DNA of 64,000 bases. Source: Raillietiella orientalis (taxonomy: Eukaryota). The stretch lies in contig JAYWIR010000053.1 of the NCBI GenBank assembly GCA_036172245.1, positions 124,001 through 188,000 on the forward strand. Reading direction: 5' to 3'. Shown piece after piece: positions 9,844 to 63,413 of this stretch; the first letter of the stretch is position 1, and each line of letters starts with the position of its first letter. The position numbers and the translations under genes were made by a program. Below the pieces are notes generated by a model. It searched no databases. It had not been told where the DNA came from and was given only the letters and a program-made list of their open reading frames with translations.

Positions 9844-10027
9844 CCTGGCAGCTGGTCTTGCTGCACGGGACCACTGCAGGTCTTTTGCCGCGATCTCCTC
9901 GCCGCTTCTTTTTTTTGTTTCTTCTGGAAAACTTCCCCTCTCCGGGCACACACGATCACAATTAACTAATAAAGTTGTCGAGCGCACAATACTTCGAGCC
10001 GCGGAGAAAGTTCACCGACTCGGCAGG

Positions 10028-13000
10028 AGCGGAGCGATCTCCAGACTGTCAAGGAGGTGACTCAGTTGCCGCGTTTTAAAGGCTAGCAAAAGAAGCGCCT
10101 ATAAAGAACGCAGCGAGAATCGCGGAGGTTTGGGCAACTACTTTCGGAAGCCTCCGAAAATCGCCTTAGCGAATGGAAGGTTGTGGAGAGGAGAAAAGAA
10201 AAATCTTCAAAACAAGCTTCGCAACATATATCCCTTAGCTCTTCCAAAGGAAAAAGCAGTCGCGCGAATACGAAAACTCGCGCGGCTTGTGCCTCTTCCT
10301 AGGAAAAAGCCAGCGCCTTCAACGCGTGCAAGTCCGCTTCTGTGAACCCCGACAAGACCATTCCGGTGCAATCGGACGGATGCAAGCGCACGTCGAGAGT
10401 GCGAGCATTAGACTCCCCAAAAGAGTCCGATAGCTACGCTGAACGACGCGTCACTCGCGTGGGAGGGAGCGCCCTCAGGACTGAAGCCCTGAGGCGTGAC
10501 GCACTCGCCGCCGAACAACAAGTGCTCACCCCGGAATCCACACGTTCTGCACCCGGGAAGCAGCACTTGATTACGTGCAGCACAGTTGAGGTGGGTGGCG
10601 ACCGCTCTCTCCATCCCGTCGTGCTGCTTACTGTTCGCTCGGCGGGTGAGGCGAGCACCACGGCCTCGCTTTCCCAGCCGTGATGATGGCAATCGCGTCA
10701 TCTCGTCGTGTTGCCGTTACGTCTTGGAATGTCAACGGGCTCCAACATGAGAAGAGGCGACTAGTAACTGACGCTGTGCGCGCCTTCGACTTGACGCTCT
10801 TGTAGGAGATTCACAGCATCTCCGAAGAGTAGGCTGCCAAAATGGAACAACGCGCGGGCGGAACGCTACTTTATAGGTGCGGCGTTGCACGTACGTGCGT
10901 CGACGCTTTCCTCGTGCGAGGAACTTTGGCGGGAGCGGTGCGCAGCGTTTGTTTCGACACGGAAGGCCTAGTGGGACAGCTTTTACTCGAGTGGTCCGAC
11001 TCTATCGACCTTGTCGTTACCGACGTGTACGCGCCGAGCAATGCTGGTCGATGGGCCGAAAGGATCGAGTTCTTCGGTACCCTTCGAAGCCAGTGGCTCT
11101 TCGATTTCACCCTACTGTGACCCATCTCATTGCAAGGGACTTTGACGTCTACCTTCTTTCCGAAAATAGATCCCACAGAAGGGAAAAGTTGCTAGCGTAA
11201 GAGATGTGCGTGTCCGTGCACGCGTGCAACTTGTTCGCTAGCGACCCTGTTATGGCAGCAACGCCGGACCACGTATACCTTGATGAACACTTGGTCGCTC
11301 GAGTGGGTCGGAGCGGCCCGTGTTGTCCGTGCTTTCAGACCACAAGAGGCTCCAGTTCGAGTTTCTCCCGCCAGGCAAAGGGCCTCCAAACTGTTTTTGG
11401 AGGATGCCGGCAGACTGGCTAAGCCACCCGGAGGCGGCTAAGCACCTTCGCCAGTACCTCCTCGGCTTTTTCTTGAGTGAGCTTGAGGAGAGGGACGATC
11501 TGAAAAGATCGATTAGCGAGTGCCGCTGCCGGTTTCCCTTGCTCCAGCTTTCGCGCGGCTTCGGAGAGGGTGTAACCAACAGCAGAGATATTCTGCAGGC
11601 TCGTTCCATTTCCAGGCGGTCGGAAGTTGGTTGATTATCCCATTAAAAGGCCAAGGCCGATCGTCAGGTCTGGCAGTCAGGGGCGACAGTTCTGCTCGAC
11701 GACCAGGACAGGGAATGATCGGCTCCAGCCGACGTTCGACGGATAGTCAGGCGCTATTACTCTTCTTTGCATGCAGAGGAATCGACAAAACGCCGCCTCT
11801 CCCGGCTTCTCCTGCCGATTCATGCGCCGGTTGTATTAGAGAAAGAACGCGCGCGTCTTGATGAGTTCTTCACGGCGAAGGAAATTTTCTCGGCCATCTC
11901 GGGGCTAAAGAGAGGAAAAGCGCCAAGCGACGATGGGCTCCCGGCAGAATTCTTTTAGTGTTTTGCGGCGGACCTCATTTCCCTGGTGCTCTAACTCTCG
12001 TCGCTGATGCGATACTCGATTGATGTCCCCGCCTCGTTTAGCTCAGCGAAGGTGCGTCTACTGCCGGAAGGCGGAGATTTGCGCCAACTGAACAACTGGC
12101 GTCCGATCGCATTAGTGAATTCGGACGTCAAGTTGTTCTCGAAACTTTGGGTGGCGCGGATGGGTAGGATCGCGGAATCCTTGGTAAGTCCGAAGCAGAC
12201 GTACGCTGTTCCTGGGCGGTCCATGGACGCGAATCTCTTGTTCATCCTCACATTGCTGCAATTGCAGCATCGTGTGGCGGTGGATCGTCGTGCGGAAGCG
12301 ACGCCTGCGATCTCTCACCGACGGAGGCGCGGGACGCAAAGGGAGACAACGGGAGCCTTGGCGGTTGCAGTCGATCTGCACAAAGCTTTTGATTGCGTGA
12401 ACCAAAAGCTTCTTCTTGAGCTTTTGGAACGTCTGGGTCTTCCGGCATCCCTGTTGGCGTACTTGCGCTCCTGCTGGCGCCACGCGATTACATCCATTGT
12501 TTTCAGTGGCTGTCGCGTGTACGGCGTGCCGGTACGACGAGGAATTAAGCAGGGTGACGCTAGCCAACCTGCCGAGCTCCTGTCCAGGTACGCCGGCCGT
12601 GGCAGCCTATGCCGACGACCTGCTTCTCCTGTTGCCCATGTCCACCCCGGCGACATCGCCTGAAGACTTCTTTGAGTTGATTCGTCGCTGTGCGGGCGTG
12701 AGCGTTAACAAGAGTGAGTGTATGGTTGTTCCGGTGGAAGGGACGTCGGAGGGGCACTCCTTCTGGATTTGCCTAGTGATCCCCACGTGCAGGTACTTCA
12801 GGTATTTTGTCGTGCCGTTGAACGACTTCTGCATCTCAGAAGCGTGGTCGGACTGCCTGCGGAAGGCAGAGCGTGCACTTGGCCAATTTTCAGAAGGCGA
12901 GTTCGTCTTGTCGGAACAAGCCTGCATCTGGAACACCTTCGTTGCAACCCTCCCAAGCCCCCTGTTTTTTGTTTGTCCACCTCCCCAGGAAGTCAAGTTT

Positions 13001-14534
13001 AGAGCGCAGCGCCTTCCACGCAAAGCGCTGTGGGGCGCTGCAAGATCCCGTGTTAGACTTAAAGACTTGGTGGCGCCGCGTCAGGATGCAGGCTTGGGCA
13101 TCCTCGACTTGAACAGCATCGAACTGCAGGTGCAGTTTTGCATGATGCGGCTCTGAGACAAGCTGTGGTGTACGCCGTGGTGCATACCCGCACGCCTTAT
13201 ACTGAGGCGCTGCACGGGAAGCGAGGGACTGCTTTCGTTGCTACCTTACTTTCGGCACACCAGAATAGGGTTTGGCTTCCCGCTGAGGCAGCTGTCCTCT
13301 CTGCTGGAAGCCCAAAGCTGGATCTCCTGCCGCCCCATGAACATTAGTGCATGGCGGCAGGAATCTTTTTCATCGTGGCCAGCTTCCGAAGGAACGCGCC
13401 CGGAAGATCTTCGACGCCTGCGACTTCTCCTCAGTCATCAAATGGACAAAGTCATGCAGGACAAGAAGATGTCGGATCGTCTGGCTGCCACACCACTCGC
13501 CGCAGCGCTGTCTGCCCTCAGGGCACGAAACCACGGTTGCCTAGTATAGGAATTGGAGTTCTCCTGCAAAATAGTGGGAGTCAGTAAACTCTTCGGCTGC
13601 TGGACGGCATACGAGCTAGTGCAAGCCGCCACTCCTCGAAATCGGGAGAAGAGCCTGCTTCGGTGGAGCGAACACTTAAGTGTGCCCCCCGAAGAGATAG
13701 TGGTTCCCCTCGATTGTATGGACAGATCCGTGTTCCCCCTTAAGTGGAAACAAGATGTGCTGCTCTTTTTACATTGTGCATTACACTGTAATAGGCAGCG
13801 AAGCATCGTTTCCGGGGGAGCTGCTTTGCCAAACTGTTTAAGGTGCGGAGAGATCGAGTCTTTTCCGCACCTTTTGCTGGACTGCGGTGACCTCCGGGAA
13901 CTGTGGCGAAGGCTCACTTCGGCCATCATGCCACAAGGAGGCACTGCCATTGATGTGCTGCGGCGCTTCTTCAGCAGAAATGGACTTTCGGTTGGCGCGA
14001 TTGTCGCAACCATGTGTTGCGTTCGCGCCATCGTGAAGGCCCGTTACGCCTTGGAGTTTCCAGCGCAGCGAAGGAAGGCTCACCTGCTTGCAGCTCAATA
14101 CATGGAGAAGGCTTCAAGGTGGTCTCATCTTCGTGACAAGGTGAATGAGGACATCACCGACATACATCGTCGGTTTACAGACCTTTGAGAGCGGCGGAAT
14201 CCGGTGACGCCTGTTACCTCTCGCCCACCCATACCCCGTCTTCTATCGCTCGGTGAAATTACCGGTGCCCATGCTTTAATCCCCGTGTTTTCCAGAGCAA
14301 TCCCAAAGTCCCTTATCCTGTCCTTCTTTTTGATTGTTTTAATTCTATTTTGGTTTCTTTGTGTTCCTTGCTTCCCCACACCGCTCGGAAAACTGTTACT
14401 TTGGCGTGCATGCCAGGAATATTCTCTTCATTATTGTTCAGTCGTCAATTGAAGGTGCGGTTCCCAACTGGTCTATTTTATATAATTGTTTTGTTTATGT
14501 TATATGATATAAACGCCCTTGCGTGAGCGGGTGA
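10028..14534 (+). mobile_element. LINE family D copy F: ORF1 tail + degenerate ORF2 + 3' UTR
   Basis: SWNVNG at about 10723, WRPIALVNSD, DLHKAFD, AYADD and CLRCGE..H..C, with many stops and frameshifts. Ends TAAACGCCCTTGCGTGAGCGGGTGA. Confidence 0.85.
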
Positions 14535-14537
14535 GGA

Positions 14538-15270
14538 ATCTCTTGCGCTTGTTCTGCAGAGATCACGTGGATCTCCTGCAGCAGCGCAAGGTCGTAGGAC
14601 TCCAGAAGAACGGCCATGTCTCGTCTCCTGCCGGCGTCTGTCATGCCGTTCACGTTCCAAACGGCGATGCGCAGACGACGGCGGGAGGAGATTCCCGGCA
14701 TTACTGCTGGGAAGATTAAGGTGTGGGGGAGCCCTCCTCTTGCGAGGGGGGCGGGATGTCCATGGGGGTTTCGGCCTTCTCAGGCACCTGAGGCACCTGT
14801 TCGGCCTCCACCTCCTCCATCCCCTCCGTGTCCGTGCGTGGGAGTCTCTCGGGCGACGGGTCCCGAGAGTTTCCCACGCTCATGGCACCCTCGCTTGCGG
14901 AAGCCATCTCTTCCCCTTCCACGGGGGAGACGAGCTTCCTTGGCTTTGTGGACTTACGTCCAGCCTTCTTGCGCGGTGCCGTAGAAACGGAGGCTGCGCT
15001 TCCGGCCTCCACCTCGGGGTCGGAAGTGGGGTACTCCTGAGGGGAGGCCGGACGCCTTACGGCCTTCTTGCCAGCCTTGGAGGGTTCTGGCTGCAACGAG
15101 GCTGCCAGCTCCTCCGCGGCTCGCGCGAAGGCTACGTCATCGATGGTGGTGTCGATGACCGACGCCGCCGCCGGCTCGCTCTCCTCGCTGTTGACAGAGT
15201 CAACAGAAGGGAGGTCGTCGGTAGTGGCGAGTTCTATTTTGCAGGGGTCGGGAACACGATCCACGACAAC
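14538..15270 (-). mobile_element. LINE family B copy B', middle piece (ORF1 C-terminus + ORF2 start)
   Basis: MPGISSRRRLRIAVWNVNG...LLQEIH. Nearly identical to 37958-38578. Continues the ORF1 piece that ends at 54223. Confidence 0.88.
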
Positions 15271-18200
15271 TGCCGCACGGACGTGTTCTGTGTTGCTCCT
15301 CGAGCGTGATTCCTTTACGTCTTCTTGTGTGTGGTTTGCCCGAGTGCGTCCACTGGGATGTCCACGGAGCCCCTGCAGCAATATTTGGATGTGGAAACTG
15401 CTACAGGCAGTGGAGACTCTACTCCAGATGTCCGGTCCGCCTCTGATTCTTGTGTCTCGCCACCGGCGAGAAGCTTCGCCGCCGTCGTCAAGGCGGCGGT
15501 AGCCAACGGAGCACCACCCGACGAAGCTGAGCTGCAGGCATGTGCAGCCCATGGCTACAAGCCTGCGCTTTGCTATCAGGTGAGTGCTTCTATCTCCGTC
15601 TGGGTCTAAGAAAATTTGTGGGACGAGCTTTTGCGCGTCGGGGTTTGAAAGGACGACCTCCTGGCCGTCATGCCGGTTAACGCGCTCGGACACTGGGAGG
15701 TGCACTGCAAAGATTCATCCCTAGTCCAGCGTCTTCTCCGCACCCCCCTAAATATCCGCGGGAAGCAGGTCGTCCCGTCGGCCATTTTCGAGTCGTTCGT
15801 GGTCCGATTGTCCGCCGTCCATGTTGAGACGCCCGATCGCGTGCTCGTCGCTGCACTTAGCGCACTCGTCACGGTGCACGCGCTGTGGAGAGCAGACAAT
15901 TTGATCAAAAGGATTGCATCTCTCCACAACGGACCTGCCATGGCGCATGTCACCGTGGCGGATAGGAGGCAAATGCCTCCGCACTTGCAACTGGGCGATG
16001 CGATCGTCCACCTTAAATTTGTCGGTCAGCGACCGGCTTGCGTCATTTGCGGTGCAGAAAGCCACCGTCCGTGGACGCGCCCTTCACGCAACTGCCACTA
16101 TTGTAAACAGCTCGGCCACTCCATCAAAGAGTGCGCCGAACTGAAGAGAAAGCGGCAGGCGAAAAGTCGCCAGCAATCGACCCCGTCCGCAACGAAAAGA
16201 TCCCCCGTTGTGCCACAGGAGAAATCGGGCGCGAAGAGCGCGGCATCTCCGAGTGGCGGTTCCGCAAAAAGGGCGCGGTTGCTTCAGGGAAGTAACCATA
16301 CCAGACTGCCGCGCAGACGGGAAAGATGACAGGTCGACCTGGAGGCATATCGCCCCCGTCGAAGCAGCCTAAGAGTGCGGGCACGCACTAATTCAAAGCT
16401 GCTAAACCGTCCGCGTCCGCTTGCGCGTCCAGCAGAGCACACGGGAAACCGTGCGCGGGTACCCTCAGAGCTGCCTCTGAACGGCAGTCTCCTCCTACGG
16501 CGGTGGATATCACGTCTTACACGCCGTAAGCAAGAGCAGCGAAGGCTGAAATGGCGCCTAGCGGGACGACGGCAATGACCGCCGTTTCGCCCTCATGGGC
16601 CAAGGAGGAGGTACAGTTTGAAACGGGGAAGTAGTCATCTCCAGCCGCGAGAGCGAAACGTGAGCCGGCATCTCCGACCAAACAATTGAGGGAGGCGTCA
16701 ACCTCCCAGGAGGTTGTCCACGACGCAGGCTGGACTCGAATCTCCAGGACGTCTACAAAGGGGAAGAAGAAGGTTGACCCTTCAATACTCCCCATCCTTA
16801 AGGTAGGTGGGAGGCAAAAGAGGAGCACGACGAAGAAGGTGCGTACCCAGGTACGCACAACGGCTGCGTGCTCTGTCTCTGTCGCTCCGCGCGACAGGGC
16901 GGCTGCGGAAGCCAAAGCTCCGGAAGCTGCGTTGGCGACTGCGACGAACCCCGCGCGGGCAGGGCAAGCCTCCACCTGCCGCAACAAAAAGAGACTGGGA
17001 AAACGCCAGTCTCGTACCAGGCACTCGGACTCCGAGGTGGAGTCGGAGTGCAAACAAATGAAGCGCGCATCTCGCGGTAAGCCGGTAGCGCGCCGGGCTA
17101 AAGTGCGAAAGCACGAACTTGTTGCCGGAGGCGGTTCCGTCTCCTGCACGGAGACCAAGGCGATGATCCTCAGCTTCCAGGACTCAGCTGGGCGCGATGT
17201 GGCTGGGAACGGGAGCGATTTCGCTTTGTAATCCACTCTTTTACCAGCTGACATCTTGTCGCACGGGGCGAGGAGCACGCCGTCATGTCCGAAGCAGTGA
17301 TGCGTGGACTCGCGTCCGCTCGTCGCGTCAGCGTGGCCTGTTGGAATGTCAACGGGCTACGTGATGCTGACAAAAGGCGGACGGTAGCGAACGCTTTGCG
17401 CGCGTTCGATCTGGTGCTGCTGCAGGAGATACATAGCATCTCCGTACGGCAGGCATCGGATCTGGAAGAGCGCGCAGGTGGGACGCTACACTGGCGGCAA
17501 GGCTCCGCGCACACGTGTGGAGTCGCGTTCCTCGTCCGAGGCAGGGTGGCGGAGGCTGTGCGGAACGTTTGTTTCAACGAGGAAGGTCGTGTGGGCCAAC
17601 TTGTCCTCAAGTGGTCCGAATAGATCGACCTGGTCGTTACGAACATCTACGCGCCCAGCGGCGGCCAGCATTACGCCCAGCGACTTGCATTCCTGGGTGG
17701 CCTGCGCAGCCGCTAGCTCGCTGATTCCGGCCCTAACGTGGCGCACCTTCTTGCAGGAGACTTCAACGTCCACCTGCTAACAGAGGAGAGATGCCGCTTG
17801 AGGGAGAAGCAACTGGTGAGCGAGGTATGCGCGTCCGTGCGCGTGCAAAACTTGCTTGCTGGTGAGCCAGGGATGGAGAGATCGCCGGACCATGCGTTCC
17901 TCGATGAACACCTGCTCTCACGAGTAGGTCCAAGAGGGCGCCTGCTGTCCGCGATTTCGAATCATCCTAGACTGGAGTTCGAGCTCCCTCCGCCTGGCAA
18001 AGGGCCTCCGATGAATGTCTGGAGGTTGCCGGCCGACTGGCTTAGCAATTCGGAGGCGGCGGAGCATCTCCGCCAACACCTCCGGGACTTCGCCATCTAT
18101 GAACTCGAGGACTGGGACGATCTAAAAAGATCGGTCCTCTAGTTCTGCTGCCGGTTCCCCTTGCACCTGCTTCCCCGCAGCTTCGAGGAGGGTGTCGCGA

Positions 18201-18358
18201 ACAGCAGATCCTATCCGCAGGCGCGTACCTTTTCACAATGCCCGGACGTACTCCGTCTGGAGGAGTACAGGGTCAAGGCGGAGCGCCAGGTTTGGCAGTC
18301 TGGAGCGGCTTGTCTGCTCGATGACGCTGGCCAGGAATGCTCGGCTGCAGCCGAAGTT
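15271..18358 (+). mobile_element. LINE family D copy D, 5' piece (5' UTR, ORF1 about 15358-17231, ORF2 EN from 17285)
   Basis: 5' motif GGACGTGTTCTG..GCTCC. Knuckles CVICGAESH and CHYCKQLGHSIKEC. EN motifs CWNVNG, LLQEIH, AGDFN. Confidence 0.85.
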
Positions 18359-18360
18359 TG

Positions 18361-19565
18361 TCACCCGGATATGCCAAGGCATTTATTATTCTAATTTTTT
18401 ACAAAAATTAGATAATAAAGTCTTTAAAAAGATGGTTTCTGTGGGGAAACACTGGGTTCTCCCACCTTGCTCGACGTGTCGGTTGCTGGTGCATAGACCG
18501 GTTAGGTCCATTCCCGAGGCGCATGGGAAGGGAAAACTAGAACAAAAACAAACAAAAAGAGAGATCACGGGAAGGTGAACAGTTATATGGGGAGAGGGGG
18601 GAACAGGGAAGGGATAAGTGGGCGCCTAGGTCTGTCCACCGCATCCTCTTAAGGATGCTGTCAAGTTCGGTTTTTGTTGTGAAAGCTAGACGCCACCTTT
18701 TCGCCGTCTCTAAAGAGATCGTCGTCCAGTGGATGGCGTCCCTGCATCTTGGGCCTCTTCTTCTGGCGTGCCACCTTTGCATAATGCCGCGCACGCAGCG
18801 GAGGACTGCTACAGACGCAAAGGGGCGCAGGTCGTCACTCAGAAAGAGGCGACGGTAAATTTCCTTAGTGTCGCCTACTGGAAGATGGAGGATTGGGGCG
18901 ATTCGACTCAAGAGTCCATCCAGGGCGACACACTCGAGGGTGAGATGCGGGAAGGTATCTCTTTCTCCGCACTCGACAGAGCGAGCATCCTTATTCCCCA
19001 GTGTCCAGTGAGACAGGCGTGCTCTGCTTAACAGTTTCCAGTGCAGAAAGAGCAACGCCGTCTCCTGCCACTTTAACGGGAGTGTGCCGCAATTCCAACA
19101 CGCTGATGGCCACTTCAGCTCCTCCGGTGGTATTGCGAGGAGCTCTCCTCAGCGCGCAAGTCCGTGAGGCGGGACGCTCAAGGTGGCAGCGTCCGTGAGC
19201 TCCCGAGTCGTCCACGCCTTTGAAGGTTTTTTCCTGCCTCGGATGAGGCAGGACACTTCCCACGATGCCCGCTCGTTGTTGCTCCTAGTGTTTTTCAGGG
19301 AGGACCGAACGGGAGCAAGGGGGCTGAAAGAAGCCCACAGAAACTTTCGGGGCGTGTTGATAATATACTGCAGCGGCTGTCCAGCGTACGCTCCTCGTCG
19401 TAGGCAGTTGTATTCCGCCTCGCTCATGCCTTTGATCTTCGCCCACACGGAAGCTGACTCCTGAAGCCAGGCAGTGCAGTTCGCGGGGAGGCAGGAGATC
19501 GAGGTATTCTCCCTCATCAGGGCGACCATCTGGCGCAAATCGGGGCCACAGTTGGAGAGGCTGCG
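18361..19565 (-). mobile_element. LINE family C-like 3' piece (ORF2 C-terminus + 3' UTR), probable 3' end of copy E
   Basis: ELTDAAT and ECGERDTFPHLTLEC. Terminus AATAAATGCCTTGGCATATCCGGGTGA. Confidence 0.8.
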
Positions 19566-19569
19566 CTGG

Positions 19570-21405: not shown

Positions 21406-21834
21406 AAAACATCAAAGTCCTCCTGCTGTCGGAAGCGCCCGACATTAGAGCACAACTGGTCTACGAGTTGTGTGCGTCGATGCATGCGCGCAACTTGTTG
21501 GCCGATGAAGCCGACGTGACACGCAGAATCGACCACGTGTTACTCGATAACCACCTGTGCACGCGGGTGGGGCCTCAAGGCGCACTTGAGTGCGAGCTGT
21601 CCGATCACCCTCGTCTAGCGTTCATCATTTATCCGCGCGAAAGAGGTCCACCCTCCGAAGCGTAAGGCCTGCCGGGATTCTGGTTGCGACTCCAAGGAGC
21701 GCGCGAATATCTGCGTGCATTCCTGCGTGGGTTCGAACTGCAGACTCTTGTTGACTGGGACAAATTAAAACGCTCAGTCCGAGAGTTCTGCGACTAGTTT
21801 CCCCTTCATCAACTTCCTCCATGATTCGGTGATG
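21406..21834 (+). mobile_element. LINE family C-like ORF2 fragment K (EN end/linker)
   Basis: RAQLVYELCASMHARNLL, IDH, LSDHPRL and FPLHQLPP*FGD. Confidence 0.8.
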
Positions 21835-22440: not shown

Positions 22441-22449
22441 CCGCGTCGT

Positions 22450-28100: not shown

Positions 28101-28177
28101 CGGTCAAGAGGAAACTGCTCGCGAAACTCCCGGACGAAGGCATTGAGAAGGACCCAATCGGAGAGACTCTGAAGCGT
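25160..28177 (-). mobile_element. LINE family A copy A2, 3' piece (linker, RT, zinc finger, 3' UTR)
   Basis: WRPIIIVNTD, RQGDSLGP, AYADD and CARCGVRESLPHLIVDC, with a hairpin terminus at 25161-25187. Confidence 0.88.
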
Positions 28178-34523: not shown

Positions 34524-34538
34524 GGGGATTCGGCGTTG

Positions 34539-41990: not shown

Positions 41991-42181
41991 ATCCCTTCCC
42001 TTACGCTCACAACTTTTCTCTTCTTTTTTTGTTTTGTTTTTTTTGTTTTTCCCCCTTCCCCCTGCTGCCGTGGTGGACCGTACCGGTCTGCGAACCGGTG
42101 ACCCGGCAGGCTCTGTGTTTCTTCGTGCGTGGCCGGAGCAATGGTCCAGCCACCGCACGTCTTTGTAAAAGTTTATTTTAC

Positions 42182-42212
42182 AATAAACGCCCCGGCGAAA
42201 TCCGGGTGAAAA
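42182..42212 (+). terminator. 3' terminal AATAAA + GC hairpin (representative copy)
   Basis: AATAAACGCCCCGGCGAAATCCGGGTGAAAA. Variants occur at 14 element ends. Confidence 0.7.
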
Positions 42213-51671: not shown

Positions 51672-54222
51672 GTGCACCGCGCAGTCACGCGCTACTACTC
51701 CTCGTTGGACGCGGAGGAGCCCACGGAACGCAGTCTCTCCGAGCTGCTCCTTCCGACGGGCAACCCTGCAATCGACGAGGAGGAACGCGCCAGATTGGAT
51801 TGGCTTTTCACGGCGGAAGAAGTATCTTTTGCCATAGCGGGCCTGAAAAGGCGTAAGGCGCCTGGGGAAGATGGCCTGCCCGCGGAGTTTTTTCAGTGCT
51901 TCGCGGCGGAGCTCGTCCCCCTGGTGCTAAGCCTTTCCTCGCTGATGCGTGAGACAGGAGATGTTCCCGCTTCTTTCCGCTCAGCAAAGGTGCGGCTCCT
52001 GCCGAAAGGCGGTGATTTGCGCCACCTCAGTAACTGGCGTCCGATCACATTGGTGAATTCGGACGTCAAGTTGTTCTCCAGGCTATGGGTCGCGCGCCTG
52101 GGGAGAATCGCAGAGTCCTTGGTAAGTCCGGAGCAGACGTATGCTGTTTCGGGGCGGTCCATGGACGCGAATCTCTTCTTCGCGCGAACATGGTTCGAGT
52201 TGCAGCAGCGCGTGGCGCAGCAGAGCCAAGCAGCCGAAATCGCCGCTGCCAAAGGAAAGCGGCGGTGTTCAATGCACGATTGAACGCCTGGAGCCTTAGC
52301 GGTCGCCGTCGATCTCTGCAAAGCGTTCGACAGCGTAAATCAGGACCTCCTTCTAGAGCCTCTGGGACGCCTAGGGCTCCCGACGCACCTCATCGCCTAC
52401 TTGCGCTCCTGCTGGCGCTACGCGTTATGCTGTATCTCTTTCAGCGGGCGTCACGTGTACGGTGTTTCCATACGGCGGAGTATCAGGCAGAGAGTCAGAT
52501 TAAGCCCCCTGCTCTTCAGCATCTTCTTTGAGTTGGTTCTGAGGGCGTACAGGCTGACGCTGTCCAACCTGCCGAGCTCCTGCCCGGGAACAGCGGCCGT
52601 GGCCGCCTATGCTGACGACCTTCTCCTGCTGCTGCCCATGTCCACCCCGGCGTTCCCTTGTGCGCCTTCTGTCCAGCAGAAGCGTGGTCGGGCTGCCTTC
52701 ACAAGGCAGACTGCTCTGGGCCCGCTCCAAGGCGGCAGGTTTCTCCTGTCGGAACGGGCCTTCGTGTGGAACATTTTCGTTGCCACCCTCCTCCGTCCCC
52801 TCTTTTTTGTTTGTCCCCCTCCATACTCGGCTGAGCGCCGGGCGCAACGCCTGTTGCGTAACGCCCTGTGGGGACCGGAGAGGTCCAGGATACGCCGGAA
52901 GGACTTGGCGTCTCCTCGGCGGGATGCAGGTTTGGGCATCCTGACGCTGGAGCCGATCGAACTGCTAGTGCAGTTCCGCATGCTGGCACTTTGTGCGCAG
53001 CTCTGGACTACTCCCTGGTGTGCTGCAGCGCGGCTGCTGCTGCGACGCAGCACGGGTGGCGACGGACTACGTTCGTTGCATTTGCGCACGGAGCGCGCCC
53101 AGAGAGCATTCGGCTTCCCTTTGAAACAGCTCGCCACGCTTCTGGGAAAGCATGAGTGGATCTCCTGCCGGCAGACGAACTTCAACGCCTGGAGGCAGGA
53201 AGCCTTATCGTCCTGGGAAGCGCAACAGGATGTGTCGCGTTTGGAACTCCGTTGCGTGAAACTTTCCTCATACTGTCCAGTGGGGGAGGTGCTGGAAGAC
53301 CAGGACCAGTGGACACTCCTATTCGCTACGGCACTCGCCGCAGCACTGTGTGCACTGATGGTGCCAGATGACAGTGACCTGCCGGCGAGGTGGGAGATCA
53401 CTAGCGAAATCGCAGGCGAAACCCGACTGCTGGGCGGCTGGCGGACTTGCGAAGTGGCAGACGCTGCCACAGCTCGCATTCTTGCTAAGGGGCTTCTCCG
53501 GTGGAGTGAGCTCCTCGGGGTGCCCACCGATGAACTTGTGGTCCCTTCTGCGTGTTTGGACGCGACTCTCTTCCCCCTTCGGTGGAAGAAGGACGCTTTT
53601 CTGCTGGTGCATTTGGGTTTGTACTGCAACCAGAGGGCGCACCTGATTTCCGGGGGAGTTGCGTCCTCGAACTGTGCCAAATGCGGAGCGGTGGAATCGC
53701 TTCCGCATTTGCTGTTGGAGTGCGGTGCCCTCCAGGAGCTGTGGCAGCGGCTGTTTTCAGCGGTCCTGCATCCTGGACACACCGCACTGGATTGGATGCG
53801 CCGCTTCTACTCGCGTGGCGAACTTTGTCTTGGAGCGTTCGACGCAATCATCTGCTGCGTCCGCGCCATTGTCAGAGCCCGCTACGTATTGCAGATGCGG
53901 GCAGTCTCAACATCGGTCCCCGACACCGTAGCCTGCAACCTGCAAATGGCTGCCGGGTGGCCACATCTTGGAGCAAAAGTGAGGATGGAGATCGGCGGCT
54001 TTCACCGCCGGTTCTAAGAACAGGAACGATTAGACTGTATACCTCTATCCCCGCCCTCCCACCCAGTTTATTTATTTATTGTCCCACCCCATCCGGTTCC
54101 GAACTCTCAGTGTGTCCGGACTGCGTTCCGGGAAATCTACTCCCCATTTTCTGTTCATCTTGCCTCGGAAAACAGTTCTCAGTTGATATCATAATAAACG
54201 TTTTGGCGCAACCAAGTAATAA
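51672..54222 (+). mobile_element. LINE family D copy D, 3' piece (RT to 3' end)
   Basis: Resumes at VHRAVTRYYSSL exactly where 18358 stops. Has AYADD, CAKCGAVESLPHLLLEC and a degenerate hairpin end, followed by ACGACAAC. Confidence 0.85.
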
Positions 54223-55416
54223 ACGACAACGCTGCATTCTTTAATTTGCTCGCTTGCCTGCTGTTTTTTCTGGCGGTACGCGAGCTTTTTGTCCATCCTC
54301 CTCTCCTTCTTTGGTTTTTGGCTGTAGCCAACTGCCACCCAGGCTCCTGGCTTGTTCCCTCGACTTGTTCGGCGTTGTTCGCCGGGATCTCGGGTGCGGC
54401 CTGGGCCTTGGGCGCGGGTGGCACAGCCTTGGCGGCATCTTTCGCCGCCAGCCTTCTCTGCAGAAGCCATGCACGTTTTTAAAGGTATCTCTAGGAAAGC
54501 ACCCGCACTGCTGCTTTAGGGCACACCTCCCTCGTGTGTCTCATGGTTGCGCATACTTGGCACTGCACATTAAGACACCTCTTTTTGATGTGGCCCGACG
54601 TATTGCAGAAGCCACATTATTTCGGTTTCCCCACATACCAGAGGTCGACGGTTTCGCCTTCGACCACCAGTTTGTGAAGAAGAGTGCAGTTCTCATAAAC
54701 GGTCACGCGCGCAGCAGTAAGGCCGTGCTGCAGCCCCGTGTAGTCCTAGAAAGGACTAACTTTCGTCCACTGCGCGTGGACCGTTCCAAATTTTCTAGCG
54801 CGGCGCGAACCTGTTCCTTGCGCATTCGCGCGGTACCACCTAACAGGTGGACCACCATGCTGCGGTCCGCCGTAATAGGGAGGAGCCTGCGCGTCCTTAT
54901 CACCACGGGGGTTTGAAGCTGTCGCTGGGCCAGCTCTGCTTGTTTGCAGATGACCTCAACGTACTGACCCCCGCTGCGGATGGTCATAGCGCTGAGCTCC
55001 TCCTCTTTCACCTCGAGAGCGCGCATGCCCTTCGAAAAGGCGCGCGCGTTCTCTAAAGAATATAAATTGCTTACTTTGTAGAACAATGAGGGGTTGTACT
55101 TCTCCTCTACATACTCCGACAATTCCGCCGCGGCTGCAGGCGATGGCGCCGACACAACGGCGCCCCACGCCCGCGCTGCAGGGGGACCGATTCTGTGGGG
55201 GCGCATGCCCCCACTTCCATCGCCTCCGGGGGCGACGTTGCCGCCTCCCCCTGGCTCTCCATCGCCTCTGGGGGTGGCGTTGCCGCTGCTTCCTGGCCGT
55301 CACTGGTGTTCGCGTCATGGATCGCTGCCTGATCGACCACCGAACCACACGACGCTTGCACTGGGGGAGACTTCCTGGCATGAGGAGCATCGAGAAAACA
55401 CGTCCACACTAGAGCA
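54223..55416 (-). mobile_element. LINE family B copy B', 5' piece (5' UTR + ORF1)
   Basis: Colinear with 36645-37845. Starts TGCTCTAGTGTGGACGTGTTTT. Confidence 0.9.
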
Positions 55417-57470
55417 CGCAAAGCGTTCGACTGCGTGACTCAGGATCTCCACCTGAAGCTCCTGGTACGCCTCGGTCTGCCGGTGAACCTCGTGGCCTCT
55501 TTGCGCGCCTGCTGGCGGCATTCGCTCAATTTTATTTCTTTTAGCAGCTGCCACGTGTACGGCGTGCCGGTGTGCCAGGGCGTCAGGCAAGGTAAAAGCT
55601 TAAGCCCATTGCCCTCTAGAATCTTCTTTGAGTTGGTGCAGAAGGCGTACAGGCTGACGCTGTATAACCTGGAGAGCTTTTGTCCAGAACGCCGTCCGCG
55701 GCTTTCTATGCTGACGGTCTTCTTCTCCTTTTACCCATGTCTTCCAGTCTCGCGGACTTCTTCGAGGTGATTCGCCGGGGACTGGGCGTAAGCGTAAACC
55801 GGAGCAAGAGCGTGGTCGTTCCTATTGGTACGGCGTGGGAGGGGCAGTCCTTCTGGATCCACCTGGGGATCGCGACTGCTTTCTCCATTTTATATCTAGG
55901 CGTTCCACTGGGGAACATCAGCTTAGTGGAAGTGTAGTGGGACGTTTTCGGAAGGCTACGAGTGCACTGCGCCCGTTCTGCCATGGCAGGTTCGGGCCGC
56001 GATATGGAACACTTTCGTTGCCCTCCTCTTGCGCTTCCTGTTTTTTCTTTGCCCGCCATCAGACTCGGCGAAGCTTCAGGCGCACACCCTGTTGACGAAT
56101 GGACTGTGGGATCCTGCGCGGTCCAGGTTCCGCCTGAAAGTCTTGGCGGCTCCGCGTCGGGATGCTAGCTTAGGCATCCTGACGCTGGGGAGAATCGAAC
56201 TGCTGGTGCAGCTTCGGATGTTGGCCCTGTGCGCCAACCTTTGTTTCACCACGTGGTGCGCTCCTGCGCGCCTGCTCCTGCGGCAATGTACCGGCAGCAA
56301 TGAACTTCTGTCGCTGCGACCGCACACGTAGCGCTCCACGAGTAGCTTCGGTTTCCCGTTTGAACCACTCTACCGGCATTTGGCAGCCCAATCATGGATC
56401 TCCTGCCGTTCAACGAACTCTGATTCCTGGTGGCAAAAACCGTTGCATGGCTGGGAAAAGCACCAGGGTGTTTCTCTCCTGGATCTTCGTTGCATTCACC
56501 TCTTCCCGTACTGCTCGGTGGATGAGGAGTTCAACAGCCAGGAGAAGTGTACTCGCCTGGCCGTCACGCCCCTCGCCGACGCGCTGTCAGCCCTCAGAGC
56601 AAGAGATGACAGCTGCGAACCGGCGAGATGGGAGGTCGCCTGCACCGTCGTAGGAAGAACACGACCTATTGGCGGCTGTAGGACTTGCGAGCTGGCAGAC
56701 GCCGCAACGCCTCCCCACATCCCGAAGGGACTATTTCGATGGAGTTAACTCTTGAGTGTGGCCCCCGAAGAACTTGTGGTCCCTCCCTTCTATATAAACA
56801 CTTCTGTGTTCTCCCTTTAGTGGAAGCAGTACGTCATCATACTGCTGCATTGGGGTTTTCACTCCAACCAGCGGACGAACCTTGTTTCCGGAAGAGTTGT
56901 CTCCCCAAACTGTAAGCGGTACGAAGAAGTGGAAACACTCCCGCACCTGCTACTGGACTGCGGTGCTCTCCTAGGAGAGTGGCGGAGGCTGGCCTCAGCT
57001 CTTCTGCACCAGGGGGACACCACGAGAGACTTGATGCGCCGCTTCTTTACGCCAGGCGTCTTTGGGTAATGTCGTTGCAACCGTGTGTTGCACCCGCGCC
57101 ATCCAAAAGGCTCACCGAGAGTTGGAGACGCTGGCCAACCTTCGTCAGCACACCGGATTAGCCAGCACAAGCATGTCGTCGGCTGCCGAGTGGGCTCAAC
57201 TGCCACAGGACGTAAGGAGAGAGATCGCCGGCATCCATCGCTGGTTTTGAAAGAAAGGAACGGCGTTACCAAAGTCCGCTGTCTCCGGCCCTTCATATTT
57301 TCATTTTTTTTATAGTAGTGTATTTGTGGTCCCCTCTCTTCCTTTCCGTACTTTTGGCATACCGACCTGCGTGTCTGGGATCTCACCCCCTTCGTCTCTT
57401 GTTTTTTAATTTTTCCAAGAACTCTGTACCTTGATAGTTTCTTAATAAACGCCTTGGCGCACCCGGGTGA
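55417..57470 (+). mobile_element. LINE family D copy D3, 3' piece starting at RKAFDC
   Basis: RKAFDCVTQD, degenerate RT and zinc finger. Terminus AATAAACGCCTTGGCGCACCCGGGTGA. Confidence 0.85.
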
Positions 57471-57473
57471 TGA

Positions 57474-59498
57474 ACAGTTCGTACCCCGCGATGGTCTCGT
57501 TCTCCTGGACCTCTGCCGCGGTGTTAACGTGGATCTCTCGAAGCAGGCTCAGGTCGAGTTCACGCAGGGTGTCGGCCGTATCTCGCCTGTTACCTTGGTC
57601 GCGCAGCCCGTTGACATTCCGCGACGACTGTCGAGCCCAGGTGCTACTCCTGGAAAAGTTGCAGTACGGCGTCCGTCACCTGCTGGGGCGGGATGCTATG
57701 TGGAGGAGGAGGGTTATGTGCTCAAGGCACCTGGTCCCCCTCCTCCATGGGTAACGGCTCGTCGAGCGGGTCACACGCAGTTGGGGTCGCGCCTACCGGT
57801 TGGCTCTCCTCCATGGGGGCGGGCTGTTCAGGGTCGGCGCCTGCAGGAAGGACTTCACCCACCTGCTCACCCTCCTCCATGGGGTGGCCAGCTCGACGGC
57901 TTCCGAGCGTGGGAGTTCCCCCTCCGGGAATCTCACGCTTCCGCTACCTTTCTGCTTCTCCTCCTCTCTGGTGGAGGGCAGGCGCCTCCTGGGCTTCTGG
58001 GGCTAGCGTCCCGACTTCCTGGTGGGCGCCTCCGCGGAGGAGGACGAACTTCGGTCCCCCAGGTCGCATTCACCTGCAGGGGCCTTCTTTGCTGGAGCCG
58101 GCCTTTGCACGGCCTTGCGCGGGAAGTTCTCACGCTCCTCCGGCGTGGCCGCGAGCTCCTCCGCCGCCTGCGCGTAGGCAGCGTCCTCGCCGGCGGCGAG
58201 CGCTTCGCGAGGCCAACCCTCTGTTTGCACAGAGGGTTCGCCGTCGCGAACCTCGGGCGCGCCAGAAACGGCGAGGGGAGGCTCGTCGCTCCGGGTGGCA
58301 GCCTCGGGAGCGATGACGAGTTTCGGTGCTAGCTAGCACTCGCGGAAAGTTTTCGATCGCGTACAGGGTTTCTTTGTTTTCGCGATCTTCTTTTTCCCTG
58401 CTTTCTCCGGTTCTTCGTTGGAACCCTTCCTCTCTTTTCTGGCTTTTACAACCTGCCAGCCTACTTAACCTTCTTATGCTTGGTACGGTTGTTCCTCCGA
58501 ATTTTGCGCCGGAGGTTGAGGTGCTGGCAGCTTCTCCCGTCCACTTTCTGCCTTCGGTCTTGCGACCTTTAATGCGCGTTTCCCCTGCGCTTTTTTGGCG
58601 GCAGGAGGAAGCGGGGTGGGGCGCTTGGGGCACACGCACCGAACGTGACCTCGTTCTTCGCACAGGTAGTACTATATGTTCGGATACCTTTTGCGTAGGT
58701 GTCCTACTGTGTTACAGTGCCCACAGTAGCGTGGTTTTCCCACGTATCAGAGGTCTACGGCTTCCTGGGAGAACTCGAGCTTGTGAGGTAGCGCTCTACC
58801 CTCCTTCACGGTGACACACGCTGCGGCCTGGCCCCCGAAAACGCTATTGTAGCCCTCAAAAATAGAAGCTTTAGGCCTCAGCTCGTGAACCTCTCCGAAT
58901 TTTTTCAATTCCTCACCAACCGCAGACCACATCATGCGGCTGGTGATGCCGGTCCGATGCACCACTACGGAGCGGTCCATCGTGACTGGTAGGATCTTGC
59001 GCCCATCCCTGTCCAGCGGGGTGGTGATCAGACTTTGCGTCAAGTAATTTCCTTACAGACAACCTGGACCCGCTGACCCCCGCTAAGCACGGAGAGGCCG
59101 TCACGATCCTTTGCTAAAAATATTGGCGTTCTGCAGCGCTTTCGTGAAGGCGCGTGCAGTTCGCCCTTAGAAAAGCTTGCCTTCCTGGTAGAGTAGCGAA
59201 GGTTCATAACCCGCTATCTTGTAGGCTTCCATCTCGGTCATGGCTTTCGCGCTAGGCGCGGCACCCATGGCTCTCCAACTCCTCGCCTTGCGCGGAGAGG
59301 GCGATTCCGGGGATGATGGCCCTGTTCCATTTGGCTGTGGGGGAGTACTAGCCTCCCCCACGCTTACATTAAGCGCAGTGTTCTCTGGCATCGTCGCCAT
59401 CGGACACCGGCGATGTGTGAAAACACGAATACTAGCAAAGAAACTCTCTCCAAGCCTGGCTGACGAAGCGTGAAAAAAACACGTCTGTACTCGACGAG
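57474..59498 (-). mobile_element. LINE family A copy A4, 5' piece (5' UTR, ORF1, first codons of EN)
   Basis: AGACGTGTTTTTTTCACGCTTC 5' motif. ORF1 is homologous to 33251-34449 and 43924-45058. Confidence 0.85.
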
Positions 59499-60006
59499 TG
59501 GAATCTGGGGACCGGGTCCGCAACGAAAATTCGTATTTGTATGCCCGTGGTTACGCGAAGAAATCAACGTACGTCGCTTGGCAGAATACCGCGTCGAGAC
59601 AGAGAGCGAAGCCTGGCAATCCGGGTCGGCCAGCTTGCTGGACGACCAGTGCCGGGAACACATATCCCCGGCGTCGGTACGGAATCTCCTGTTGTGCTAT
59701 TATTCCTCCCTTTATGCGAGACCCCCCCGGTACGAGACGATTTTTGGCGCTTGCTTCCAGATGCTGCCCTTGTAATAGGGGAGGAGGAGAAGTTGAGCTC
59801 CGACGAGCCTTCTACACCGGCAAAATTCTCGCCGGTAACCAAAGGCTCAAGAGGCGTTAAGCTCCTAGGGAGGACGGCTTGACCGCAAATTTTCTCCAGT
59901 GCTTAGCGGAAGAACTGGCACTTTCGGTGCTTCAGTTGACAAGACTGATACGAGACGAAGACTTTGGGCAGCCAAGATAAACCACAGGAGCAACGAAACG
60001 TTGATG
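59499..60006 (+). mobile_element. Degenerate LINE ORF2 fragment J (linker, then deletion to C-terminal region)
   Basis: VRNENSYL, WQSGSASLLDDQ and AEELA, then WAAKINHRSNETL. Confidence 0.75.
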
Positions 60007-60615
60007 TTCACCCGGATGAGCCGGGACATTGATTTTAAAAATTCTTACAAAGCAAAATTTCATGATAAAATCATTTGTTTTCAATGTTTGGTTTTTCGTT
60101 TATTTTTCTGGTCGACACACATGACCAAACTGTCTTCGGGCACTTATCCTTACCGACCCGTAAGTCTATAAAGTTCCCTATTGGCGCACGGGATGCAAGA
60201 AAACCAAAAAATAGATTGAAATAAGCAAAACAACAAAAACGATGGAAGGCACAAGGTTTTTTTGGAGGGGAGGAAAGGGAAGGGATCACAGTGCACCGTA
60301 GAAAGGGCTTTGTATCCGGGTTTGGATGCGAAGAAGTGCCGACCAATTTTTTGTGAAGTCGCCTCCCACGGGAAGACTTCTGCAAAGAGACGGTTGCTCA
60401 GTGATAGCATTGCAACATCTTCGTCCTCTCCTTGTTGCCGTCCACTTCTCCAGAATTCCGCGTAAGCAGCAGAGCACTGCTACACCTGCGGGGCTGAAAT
60501 GTGTCTTGCAACTGGAGGCGTCTAAAAATGTTTTTTCGGTCGCCAATGCCACAATGTGTAGGGCAGATGAGTGTCTATCCCTCATCTGGCGGAGAGCAAC
60601 ACACTCCACCATCTC
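60007..60615 (-). mobile_element. LINE family C-like 3' end
   Basis: VECVAL..LCCLRGI and terminus AATCAATGTCCCGGCTCATCCGGGTGAA. Confidence 0.75.
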
Positions 60616-60983
60616 TTTGCAGGAGGCGTCAATTCAGTGCGTACTAAGAAAACTTCTGTTGGCACTTGGTGGCATCCATACCCGGATGCAAAGGCCTCCC
60701 TACGGAGTACCGCGATCAGTTCTATTCCCCCCCCCTTCCAAAAAGCATTGTCTTCCCAGTCGTTTGCTTTTTTTTTTTCCCTGTATCTTTTTAGTCTTCT
60801 GAGCCTGTGAAGAGGTCCTTACCTGCTTGAAGCTCGGTAAGGACAAGTGTTTAAAGACCTTCAGAACTCTATCTGCTGAAACATAAAAAAAAAAATCTTT
60901 ATTGATTTTTTTAAAAGACAGCGTTTTATGGAATTTTGATACAAGAAAATTTCAATAATAAAAGCCCCGGATTACTCGAGTGA
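60616..60983 (+). mobile_element. LINE family C-like 3' end, inverted relative to 60007-60615
   Basis: Homologous 3' UTR and terminus AATAAAAGCCCCGGATTACTCGAGTGAA. Confidence 0.7.
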
Positions 60984-61430
60984 AGATCCACGAAGATTTA
61001 CTCGACTACGCTTGAACTAGATTATGAAAAACCCACGCAACTTGCTGTTGGCCCCTTCTACCTTTCCTCCTACCTTGCTGCTCTTCCTCACGAACACTAG
61101 GGACTGAAACATTCGGGAACTGTTGGAGGTGTCCTGTTTCGTTGAAGGCACAAGGAAACTCTTAGAAGCGTGCACGATACAAGAGTTATTCGACGTTTCG
61201 TCTTCGAGCCCAAGTCTAAAACACTTCTGCATCGAAGCGAACTGCTCGGACCATGATCTTTTTGAGGACTGTGTCAAGATGATCTCGCGAAAATAATTTA
61301 AAAGGAGCGCATGTCAGATGCCGAAGACGAATCTAAACGAACAGTGATTTACTTCCTGCCTTCCCTTCCTACAATAAATGTTTCTTCTTTTTCAATTCTT
61401 TCCCTTTATTTGTGTATTTCTTTTTCCTTT
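60984..61430 (+). mobile_element. Highly degenerate ORF2 C-terminal fragment (probable continuation of J)
   Basis: LEVSCFVEGTRKLLEACTIQELFD resembles the family A segment WQVSCCIEGREKLISGWTTGELAD. A pyrimidine tract follows. Confidence 0.55.
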
Positions 61431-61539
61431 TCTCTTGTCCTTCAAGATCAGCGTTGTGTAGAAGAAGTTTATTGATGGATACTTCGACATATCCGGTTGT
61501 TAGACATCGTTTGGGGTTGAGCATTTCCAGCTCTTCTCG

Positions 61540-61840
61540 TAGGGCGGGCACTCTGTCCTGCACTACCAGATTTGGCGCTCAGCGCTTGCCTTTCACTCTG
61601 CAAGATGCTCGACGTCAACGATTCTGGAAACGGTCACCGTCTGCAGAAATTCTCAATTGTTAGCTACGACTTCCCCGGATCCGCGTGGAAGGCGATGCAA
61701 AGAGAACCGGCTGCAGAGCTCTCCGACAAGTCTTTTGAAATGGTCACTGTGCGAATGTTTTTTGATTTCGAAGTCGCAAAGACGCTGACAAAGATGTTCA
61801 GCAGCTTCCCAATAGCTATGCAATCCCTTTATAAGCTCCT
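61540..61840 (-). mobile_element. Degenerate family D-like ORF2 linker fragment
   Basis: EAAEHL..RFSLHRLPRGSGEVVAN. Confidence 0.6.
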
Positions 61841-61844
61841 GTTG

Positions 61845-63413
61845 TTTTACGGGAGATGTCCAGGAAATCGAAAGAATCGCGGGAGGGCGGCTACTGTGGA
61901 GGAACGGAACGGACAACTCCTGCGGAGTGGCCTTTCTGCTAAAGCCTGCTGTCGACAACGCACTGCGCAGCGTCAGGTTGGACGAGGACGGTAGAGTTGG
62001 GCAGCTTGCGTTCAAGTGGACCGACTTGATCGATTTCGTGGTGACGAACCTGTACGCTCCGGTGAGCAGCCACAGGGCCGAGGAACGCATTGCGTTCTTC
62101 CAATCCCTGCGGTGAGACTGGTTGGCTGAAGCAAGCGTACGGCGGGCGCACCTCATCGCGGGCGACTTCAATCTCCGCCTGCTTGCAGGTGCTCCCAGCA
62201 GTCGAGCACAACTAGTCAACGAGCTGTGCGCAGCAATGAATGCGCGCAACTTGTTGGCCGGTGATGCCAAGAGAGATCGGAACATCGACCACATGTTCCT
62301 CGACAACCACCTGTGCACGCGGGTGGGAACTCGAGGAACGCTCCCGGCAGAGCTGTCCGACCATCCACGGCTCGTGCTCGAGTTGCATCCGCGGAATGAG
62401 GGCCCTCCCTTGAAGACGTGGCGCCTCCCAGGGGACTGGATGCGCCTCGCAGGAGCGGCGGAACATCTACGCGCGTTCCTGCGAGTATTCCATCTTGAGA
62501 CGCTCGCGGACTGGGACGAAATGAAGTGCTCAGTCCGCGAGTTTTGCGACCAGTTTCCCCTGGAACGTCTGCCGCCGAGCTTCGGCAATGGGGTCAGGAA
62601 CGAACGGGCCTACCTTCAGGCCCGCTGGTATTCCAGGCGTCCCGACGTCCGGCGCTTGGCGGAATTCAAAGCTGAGGCGGAGAGGCAGGCCTGGCAGTCA
62701 GGCTCGGCCTGCTTGCTACACCATCAGGGCCAATAGCGCTTCAGCCCAACTCAGGTATGCCGCATCGTGCGGAAGTTCTATTCCTCCTTGTACGCGCCAC
62801 TAACACCGGAGCGCCATTTCGCGCGGCAAGTGCTGCAGGATGGCCTCCCCGCACTCAAGGAGGAGGATCGTTTCACGTTGGCAGAACCGTTCACGATGGT
62901 GGAGGTTGTCTCCGCCATCAGCAGGCTCAAGAATAGGAAGGCACAAGGAGAGGACGGCCTGCCCGCGGAGTTTTACAAACACTTCGCGGCAGAGCTGGCC
63001 CTTCCGGTGCTCAGGTTGAGTACGCTGATCCGCGAACACGGCGAAGTTCCCGCCTCGTTCCGGTCAGCAAAAGTACGTCTCCTGCCGAAATCAGGAGACT
63101 TACGCAACATTGGCAACTGGCGTCCCATCACAGAAGTGAATGCGGACGCAAAGCTGTATGCCAAGTATTGGGCTGAGCGCTTGGGGCGGGTGGCCGCTTC
63201 CGTGATCAGTCCGGAGCAGACCTATGCTGTTCCCGGACGAAGCATCGAGTCAAACCTGCTTCTCGCCAGCACATGGTGGCAGTTGCGACAACGCGTTGCC
63301 CAGAAAGGTCAAGGGAGTCTTGCGCTCCCCTCTGACGAAAAACATCGGATAGAGGGTGGGAGGGACTCGGCGGGAGCCTTTGCAGTCGCGGTCGACTTGG
63401 GCAAAGCATTCGA
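61845..63413 (+). mobile_element. LINE family C copy C3, ORF2 EN to KAFD
   Basis: Colinear with C1 ORF2 and ends at AVDLGKAFD. Confidence 0.9.

Follow-up and report, generated by a model that had tools for sequence, protein, structure and literature searches.

The LINE island and its elements

The stretch analyzed here, referred to as the window, comprises 64,000 nt of the Raillietiella orientalis assembly GCA_036172245.1 (contig JAYWIR010000053.1:124,001–188,000, forward strand), and all positions given below count from its first letter. It contains an island of related long interspersed nuclear elements (LINEs) of the apurinic/apyrimidinic endonuclease (APE) type, with several families and at least about 20 copies in all, nested within one another. 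This stack was probably built by successive insertions of the LINEs into each other, in which two of the families, A and B, are sequence-specific for coding motifs of their siblings.

One full-length element of 5571 bp, n (36645–42215, + strand), was used as the reference, R, and R coordinates are used for all fragments. An nhmmer search of the window with this single element divides positions 10651–63998 into 28 oriented fragments, designated a to z, aa and ab, which tile approximately 94% of the region and leave about 3.0 kb of 53.3 kb untiled. Each fragment end was classed as a canonical element terminus (3' or 5') or as an interior break, placed in R coordinates, and the order of nesting was read from these ends. 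Families were grouped by comparing the elements over their final 600 nt and their first 900 nt, and domains were assigned to the translations of open reading frames (ORFs) using Pfam.

The 1058-aa ORF of q matches Exo_endo_phos (E 2e-10) followed by RVT_1 (E 9e-21), a pair that is also present in L, a different LINE family at the left end of the window. In the ORF1 part of a 531-aa ORF there is a zf-CCHC match (E 9.6e-5, above the curated cut-off), and CCHC patterns are visible in the other ORF1 translations. An APE endonuclease and a reverse transcriptase (RT) in ORF2, together with CCHC motifs in ORF1, identify these elements, as judged from their predicted proteins, as APE-type retrotransposons lacking long terminal repeats (non-LTR retrotransposons, or LINEs). 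Further hallmarks of LINEs are target-site duplications of 8, 11 and 12 nt, variable 5' truncation and a constant 3' end, and comparison of the window with itself revealed no terminal repeats between the two ends of n. Rfam produced no matches to the window at gathering thresholds, which speaks against a known 5' ribozyme or RNA-gene target. Protein searches returned seven matches, one of them close (64%) and the rest generic LINE reverse transcriptases, and a scan of metagenomes with ORF2 returned nine loci, all of them distant (24–59% identity over short segments).

The families that participate in the stack are diverged, being 50–90% alike. Family B consists of n, u and ab (76–91% alike), with k as a distant relative at about 60%. 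Family A comprises j and m (84%), h (63–65%), and l and w (72%), and family C comprises q and r (91%) as well as aa, which is 89.7% like q. A loose D/F group is formed by a, f, t and v (50–58% alike), and the singletons are E (fragments e and s), H (i), K (g) and J (x).

The termini are shared across families. Thirteen elements end about 25–30 nt downstream of an AATAAA-like signal, and the common 3' terminus consists of AATAAA, a 5-bp hairpin and GGGTG plus a few bases, poly(A) being absent from all 13 of these ends. One compensatory change occurs in the hairpin among the 13 copies, and in t the hairpin is kept by changes in both of its arms. A motif search recovers 12 of the 13 ends, missing that of a; 11 of these 12 close with GGGTG, GGATG or TGGTG, and t closes with the divergent CCAAGT. 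The common 5' terminus contains GGACGTG(T/C)TTT. Nine recognizable 5' ends are present between 10 and 64 kb, eight of which are recovered by motif search, and n, k, D and i are full length or nearly so.

Nested organization of the stack

When ">" denotes an element inserted into the one before it, the chain reads J(+) > A4(−) > D3(+) > B'(−) > D(+) > E(−) > K(+) > A5(−) > H(+) > A2(−) and A1(−) > B2(+) and B(+), where B2 lies in A2 and B in A1. The side branches are F(+) in B', the pair C1/C2 in E, and B3(−) in C3(+). A chain of about 11 levels with side branches had been proposed in a preliminary description of this DNA, and it was re-derived here from the tiling and the element ends, with two inferred deletions remaining in it.

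The outermost host, J, is represented by its right-hand piece only (x, 59499–59985, +, R ~2647–3107), which begins at a stretch coding for LPPGFG, the family-A site. Here, it is adjoined by the full-length 5' end of A4 (w, 57477–59498, −, family A), the 5' part of an element that is broken at R ~1961 by the 3' end of D3 (v, 55416–57476, +, family D/F). D3 extends from that end back to a site in the RT motif HKAFD, where it meets the 5' end of the family-B element B'. Two parts of B' are present, a 5' part (u, 54223–55415, −, R 2–1208) and a middle part (b, 14537–15270, −, R ~1200–1934), and an 8-nt duplication is common to both. The far end of b, at R 1934, is adjoined in antisense by the 3' end of F (a, 10651–14536, +, family D/F, ORF2 to 3' end).

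Between b and u lies D, with its 5' part at 15271–18357 (c and d, +; full-length 5' end, ORF1, and ORF2 up to about aa 368) and its 3' part at 51646–54222 (t, +), of which the 21 nt at 51646–51666, at the 5' junction of E, are of uncertain origin. E in turn interrupts D. Its 3' part is e (18358–19590, −, R ~4350–5568, 3' end at 18358) and its 5' part is s (50798–51645, −), which comprises the 5' end and ORF1 through the zinc knuckles. The fragment p (45058–46076, −), spanning the ORF1 tail to about aa 191 of ORF2, is the probable middle of E. An open reading frame running across the s–p joint was sought as a sign of continuity and rejected, owing to an internal stop in s and about 0.4 kb that is missing relative to R.

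Within E, two family-C elements lie head-to-tail and in sense orientation: q (C1, 46077–49962, −), with a 12-nt duplication on both sides, and r (C2, 49975–50797, −), which is 5'-truncated and 91–93% like the 3' end of q. In q, the 5' leader is joined directly to ORF2 without an ORF1. Its 1058-aa ORF is the longest of the region, and homology continues past its stop codon; q may represent a variant without ORF1 that relies on other elements.

The inner levels begin with K (g, 21411–21831, +, R ~2203–2655), a fragment cut at the LPPGFG-coding site, where the 3' end of A5 adjoins it (h, 21832–22445, −, a 3' terminal fragment of family A). The interior of h is adjoined by the full-length 5' end of H (i, 22446–25156, +, R 2–2656), which reaches to its own LPPGFG-coding site and there meets the 3' end of A2 (j, 25157–28171, −, family A, R ~2550–5567). 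A candidate remnant of an insertion site between h and i was rejected, being coding sequence of the zinc-finger region of h itself. D2 (f, 19591–21410, +, family D/F) is 5'-truncated; its 3' end adjoins g and its 5' end adjoins e, and its placement is ambiguous, being sense beside g and antisense beside e.

Next to j lies B2 (k, 28172–33250, +), which extends from a full-length 5' end to R ~5096 and is without its 3' end. It is followed by the 5' part of a family-A element, probably that of A2 (l, 33299–34521, −, R ~1–1250). A 14-nt remnant of a (+) host at the LPPGFG-coding site (34522–34535, +) separates the 5' end of l from the 3' end of A1. A1 itself consists of a 3' part reaching to the HKAFD site (m, 34536–36644, −) and a 5' part (o, 42216–45057, −, R ~755–3494), which together enclose n. 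At 45057, o passes in frame into p: a 531-aa open frame on the minus strand (43924–45519) crosses this breakpoint and joins the endonuclease N-terminus of p with the ORF1 C-terminus of o.

The right end of the window (y, 60.6–61.5 kb, z and aa) lies outside the main chain and is partly resolved. It contains y (60003–60617, −), a 5'-truncated element whose 3' end adjoins x in antisense at R ~3107; z (61517–61820, −), a short ORF2 fragment (R ~2518–2814); and C3 (aa, 61846–63410, +), which is cut at the HKAFD site. At this site, aa is adjoined by the 3' end of the family-B element B3 (ab, 63411–64000, −), which continues beyond the window.

As judged from the fragment coordinates, all paired halves nest without crossing one another. 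For J, A4, D3, B' and F, the left half is absent from the window and would be expected to lie to its left. Pairing x with i or g as a left half was considered and rejected, as the duplications mismatch and both fragments lie inside E.

Junctions and in silico excision

Three links have both junctions available, and for each of these, removing the insert in silico restores the continuity of the host, as the preliminary description had anticipated. For n in A1, the target-site duplication is identical at 11 of 11 positions (36634–36644 = 42216–42226). When n is excised, the host aligns without gaps across the joint to the uninterrupted paralog j (90.6% over 595 nt), and keeping the second copy of the duplication introduces an 11-nt indel at the joint. 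For D in B', GTTGTCGT (host sense) is found at the break in both halves, b and u, an 8/8 duplication. This sequence is present in a single copy in the uninterrupted homolog n, to which the joined b/u aligns across the joint. For E in D, d and t overlap by 7 nt in the coordinates of the paralog a, with 5 of the 7 positions identical, and, with the 21 extra bases next to the 5' end of E disregarded, the d/t joint contains no indels relative to a. A further duplication, 12/12, flanks q, which lies behind r at the same site.

The remaining links (x > w > v > u, g > h > i > j, b > a, x > y and aa > ab) have one junction each. In every one of them, a canonical element end adjoins an interior position of the host. 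Because target-site duplications are found at junctions and excision restores the host, the sequence indicates that the locus grew by elements of this guild inserting into each other and not by rearrangement.

Site specificity of families A and B

Most junctions of family B converge on a single position. Within 1 nt, n (at both ends), u (at its 5' end) and ab (at its 3' end) all join their hosts directly after the HKAF codons of the RT motif HKAFD, with the insert antisense to the host. The hosts at this site belong to three families: A (m/o), D/F (v) and C (aa). Four of the five family-B junctions in the window lie here, and the fifth, the 5' end of k, lies elsewhere.

Family A uses another position. 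In i, g and the 14-nt remnant, the LPPGFG-coding stretch runs up to ...GAT T(T/C)G (G/C)(T/C)G and is followed there by the 3' end of j, h and m, respectively, and the 5' ends of l and w adjoin the same stretch 12–14 nt upstream, which is the offset expected for a duplication of that length. All five family-A junctions are at this site, in antisense and in four hosts.

At the junctions that family-B elements share, identity is lower between the hosts than between the inserts (69% versus 89% and 73% versus 78%), and the same is true for family A (63% versus 75–86%). As the hosts are less alike than what is inserted into them, the shared junctions represent independent events and not copies of one composite. 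By position and orientation, families A and B thus behave as sequence-specific LINEs, as far as a small sample of junctions at one locus can indicate.

Neither site is saturated. The HKAFD site carries an insert in 3 of the 9 guild copies spanning it, and the LPPGFG site in 4 of 13, with the 14-nt remnant counted. Empty sites, those of the A and B elements among them, are similar to the occupied ones, and no immunity is visible in the window.

The window junctions revealed no shared target motif for D/F, E, H, K or C. The suggestion of the preliminary description that the locus grows by mutual parasitism, each copy supplying targets for the next, is supported and made more specific for families A and B by their shared sites; for D/F, E, H, K and C, landing in a LINE is what a region consisting almost entirely of LINEs would lead one to expect. 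A contig of a public sequencing run that aligns at 38578 matches n or b up to R 1934 and continues as the reverse complement of a D/F-like 3' end, which differs from that of a and resembles that of f. R 1934 may be a third recurrent insertion site, and is put forward as a lead only.

Insertion orientation

Fifteen of 18 insertion events are antisense to their host (n, B', ab, k, A1, A2, A4, A5, D, a, v, E, H, y and, by inference, K in E), and three are sense (q, r and f); a weak event, y' in z, is left out of this count. The one-sided binomial P for 15/18 is approximately 0.004. Eight of the 15 antisense events are insertions of A or B elements, and when these are removed, 7 of 10 remain antisense (one-sided binomial P ~0.17). 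The antisense excess of 13/15 noted previously is retained, with the same exceptions, and it loses significance outside families A and B. As the orientation of A and B insertions is fixed by the target, the antisense bias and the alternating orientation of the levels are mostly a by-product of site-specific antisense targeting.

Alternative explanations

Several observations weigh against an origin of the stack by nested, partly site-specific insertion. Only B in A1, D in B' and E in D have two-sided junctions, the links listed above as one-junction links being the remainder. The inner chain (E > K > A5 > H) requires a deletion of about 13 kb at 45057, which would have taken the right halves of H, A5 and K plus about 2 kb of E; the step from E to K, which the preliminary description had also carried across a deletion, is still inferred here. 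A second deletion, of about 1.8 kb at ~33250–33300, is required for A2 > B2 and would have taken the 3' end of k and the middle of A2. The depth of about 11 levels accordingly depends on one-sided junctions and on two inferred deletions. The continuity of E across e, p and s is presumed, with about 0.4 kb of the ORF1 tail missing relative to R. The 14-nt remnant looks like the shared target-site duplication of two tandem family-A insertions, yet its agreement with the end of i extends to 9 of 12 positions, short of the full identity that a true duplication should have.

Site preference has its own difficulties. The distant B relative k is absent from the HKAFD site, and the D/F insertions, at R 1200, 1934 and 1961, do not share a single site. 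Copies without an insertion, the A and B elements included, bear nearly identical target sequences, and since empty sites resemble occupied ones, specificity is unreadable from a comparison of the two. Finally, all of the evidence comes from one 54-kb locus in one assembly. The single public sequencing run found carries 13% of the sampled words, in short contigs that are mostly 90–95% alike; 328 of its 362 placed pieces are <99% alike to the window. A junction-bridging contig was not found among the eight displayed pieces of this run, which leaves the assembly unconfirmed by reads.

It is conceivable, and in our estimation unlikely, that LINEs without any target preference simply accumulated in gene-poor, recombination-poor DNA, such as pericentromeric heterochromatin. 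As ~94% of the region is LINE-derived, any insertion would meet a LINE, and both the lack of a common site for D/F, E, H, K and C and the nonsignificant orientation count without A and B are what such a passive graveyard would produce. It does not predict that, within a 5.6-kb element, four of five family-B junctions share a single position and are always antisense, that five of five family-A junctions fall on another single position, that the hosts at these shared sites come from different families, or that the q/r head-to-tail pair reuses one site with a 12/12 duplication.

Less probable still is that a few ancestral composites were copied by segmental duplication, inversion, ectopic recombination or gene conversion. 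Such copying finds some footing in alignments that cross host-insert junctions (e.g., 36403–37846 versus 55658–54224 at 85%) and in the joints k|l and o|p, which are not insertion junctions. In addition, b is 97–100% identical to n over R 1300–1934 and 80–91% identical elsewhere, which points to gene conversion. The lower identity of host flanks relative to inserts runs counter to this scenario, as do the differences in host family in both the 3' and 5' regions and the three links that are restored cleanly with their duplications intact. That similar LINE copies were mis-joined during assembly, creating chimeric junctions that mimic nesting, is the least likely of the three. The region does consist of paralogs 70–97% alike, b and n share a 600-nt tract of 100% identity, and no junction-bridging reads were placed. 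Mis-joins, however, fall inside shared sequence and not at canonical termini with 8–12-nt duplications that are single-copy in the paralogs, and most of the paralogs are too divergent to collapse. As for the b/n tract itself (14538–15170 versus 37950–38578), the switch in identity lies inside b and not at the b/u joint, which suggests gene conversion between inverted copies 23 kb apart, or homogenization by the assembler.

Proposed mechanism

The explanation favored here, successive insertion with site-specific A and B families, would proceed by target-primed reverse transcription. The family-B endonuclease is proposed to nick the sense strand of its host just after the HKAF(D) codons, giving an 11-nt duplication and an insert that is always antisense. 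The family-A endonuclease would do the same at the LPPGFG-coding stretch, located between the endonuclease and RT domains, with a duplication of 12–14 nt. The freed 3' OH would then prime cDNA synthesis at the hairpin-bearing 3' end of the element RNA, and a second nick on the other strand, 8–14 nt upstream, would generate the duplication. Specificity is presumably set by the endonuclease, possibly assisted by pairing of read-through 3' RNA with the target.

The target motifs would be under selection in every active sibling family, so that each new copy brings fresh targets, and antisense insertion at each step would make the orientation alternate level by level. The duplication would regenerate the site, allowing a second element to enter and form a head-to-tail pair. 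Such reuse is seen in q behind r, appears in l and m around the 14-nt remnant, and perhaps also in the L array at the left of the window. Later deletions and gene conversion would have blurred the inner part.

A broader proposal can be made only tentatively, and we consider it somewhat more likely to be wrong than right. Here, the guild would live in obligate mutual hyperparasitism, with endonucleases that recognize sibling coding motifs held under purifying selection, so that the targets cannot escape without loss of function. The outcome would be self-propagating islands of alternating orientation, which may be centromere-like or small-RNA loci.

Relation to known systems and significance

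R1- and R2-like LINEs insert at one nucleotide position of a conserved multicopy target, in a fixed orientation and with a defined duplication length, and they form head-to-tail double insertions at a reused site. Families A and B resemble them in single-position insertion, fixed orientation, defined duplication length and site reuse in head-to-tail pairs. The difference lies in the target, which for R1/R2 and for repeat-specific LINEs is a host RNA gene or a microsatellite and not the ORF of a retrotransposon.

Nested clusters of LINEs have been described for Zepp and ZeppL of green algae (Coccomyxa subellipsoidea and Chlamydomonas), where, in the passages on these elements, they span tens of kb with a G+C content above the rest of the genome (PMC3446292, PMC8226300). 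The island shares this cluster organization, which arises by nested insertion into existing copies. It differs in that several diverged families, 50–90% alike, take part, that two of them use one exact coding-motif position in antisense, and that poly(A) tails are absent. ZeppL arrays are described as consisting mostly of 3' ends, owing to frequent 5' truncation (PMC8226300), whereas the island is not dominated by 3' ends, with 9 full-length 5' ends versus 13 3' ends.

A specific target inside another transposable element is also known: Tx1L, an APE-type LINE of Xenopus laevis, is described as specifically targeting the DNA transposon Tx1D (PMC6719617). That target belongs to another class of element, whereas the targets here are conserved coding motifs of sibling LINEs, and parasites and targets form one guild, making it possible for the relation to be reciprocal and recursive. 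Cnl1 of Cryptococcus neoformans forms subtelomeric non-LTR arrays of 5–80 kb with many copies of a single family, and the passages on Cnl1 do not describe motif-specific antisense nesting (10.1101/2021.08.11.455996). A description of LINE families directed in antisense against fixed coding motifs of their siblings was not found among open-access papers and preprints. Nested LINE clusters and the targeting of transposons by LINEs are already known, and the addition made here is the antisense targeting of coding motifs in sibling LINEs.

If the site preferences hold genome-wide, this would be a clean natural case of retrotransposons living on retrotransposons via motifs that the victims cannot change. 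It would supply a mechanistic reason for the self-assembly of Zepp-type LINE islands and would explain their alternating orientation here, predicting convergent transcripts and double-stranded RNA from such islands. It would also add two new, short and well-defined target sites, each of known nick position and duplication length, to the small number of sequence-specific APE-type endonucleases, which are of interest as targeted insertion tools.

Flanking sequence

Between the L array and a, positions 10028–10650 (623 bp) have no similarity to the rest of the window, either as DNA or as six-frame protein. To the left, positions 1–10027 (−) are occupied by two head-to-tail copies of L that repeat every 5637 bp and are 92% alike. 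No spacer separates the 5' end of one copy from the 3' end of the other. The array exits the left edge of the window, and the 5' end of L at 10027 adjoins unidentified sequence.

At the other side of the stack, the G+C content falls to approximately 46% over 60000–61520, versus 55–64% elsewhere. Positions 60617–61517 have weak similarity to the C-terminal part of ORF2 and form an inverted repeat with y. The G+C-poor stretch contains the decayed 3' fragment y together with an inverted, diverged second copy, which has its own 3'-end-like motif at ~61500.

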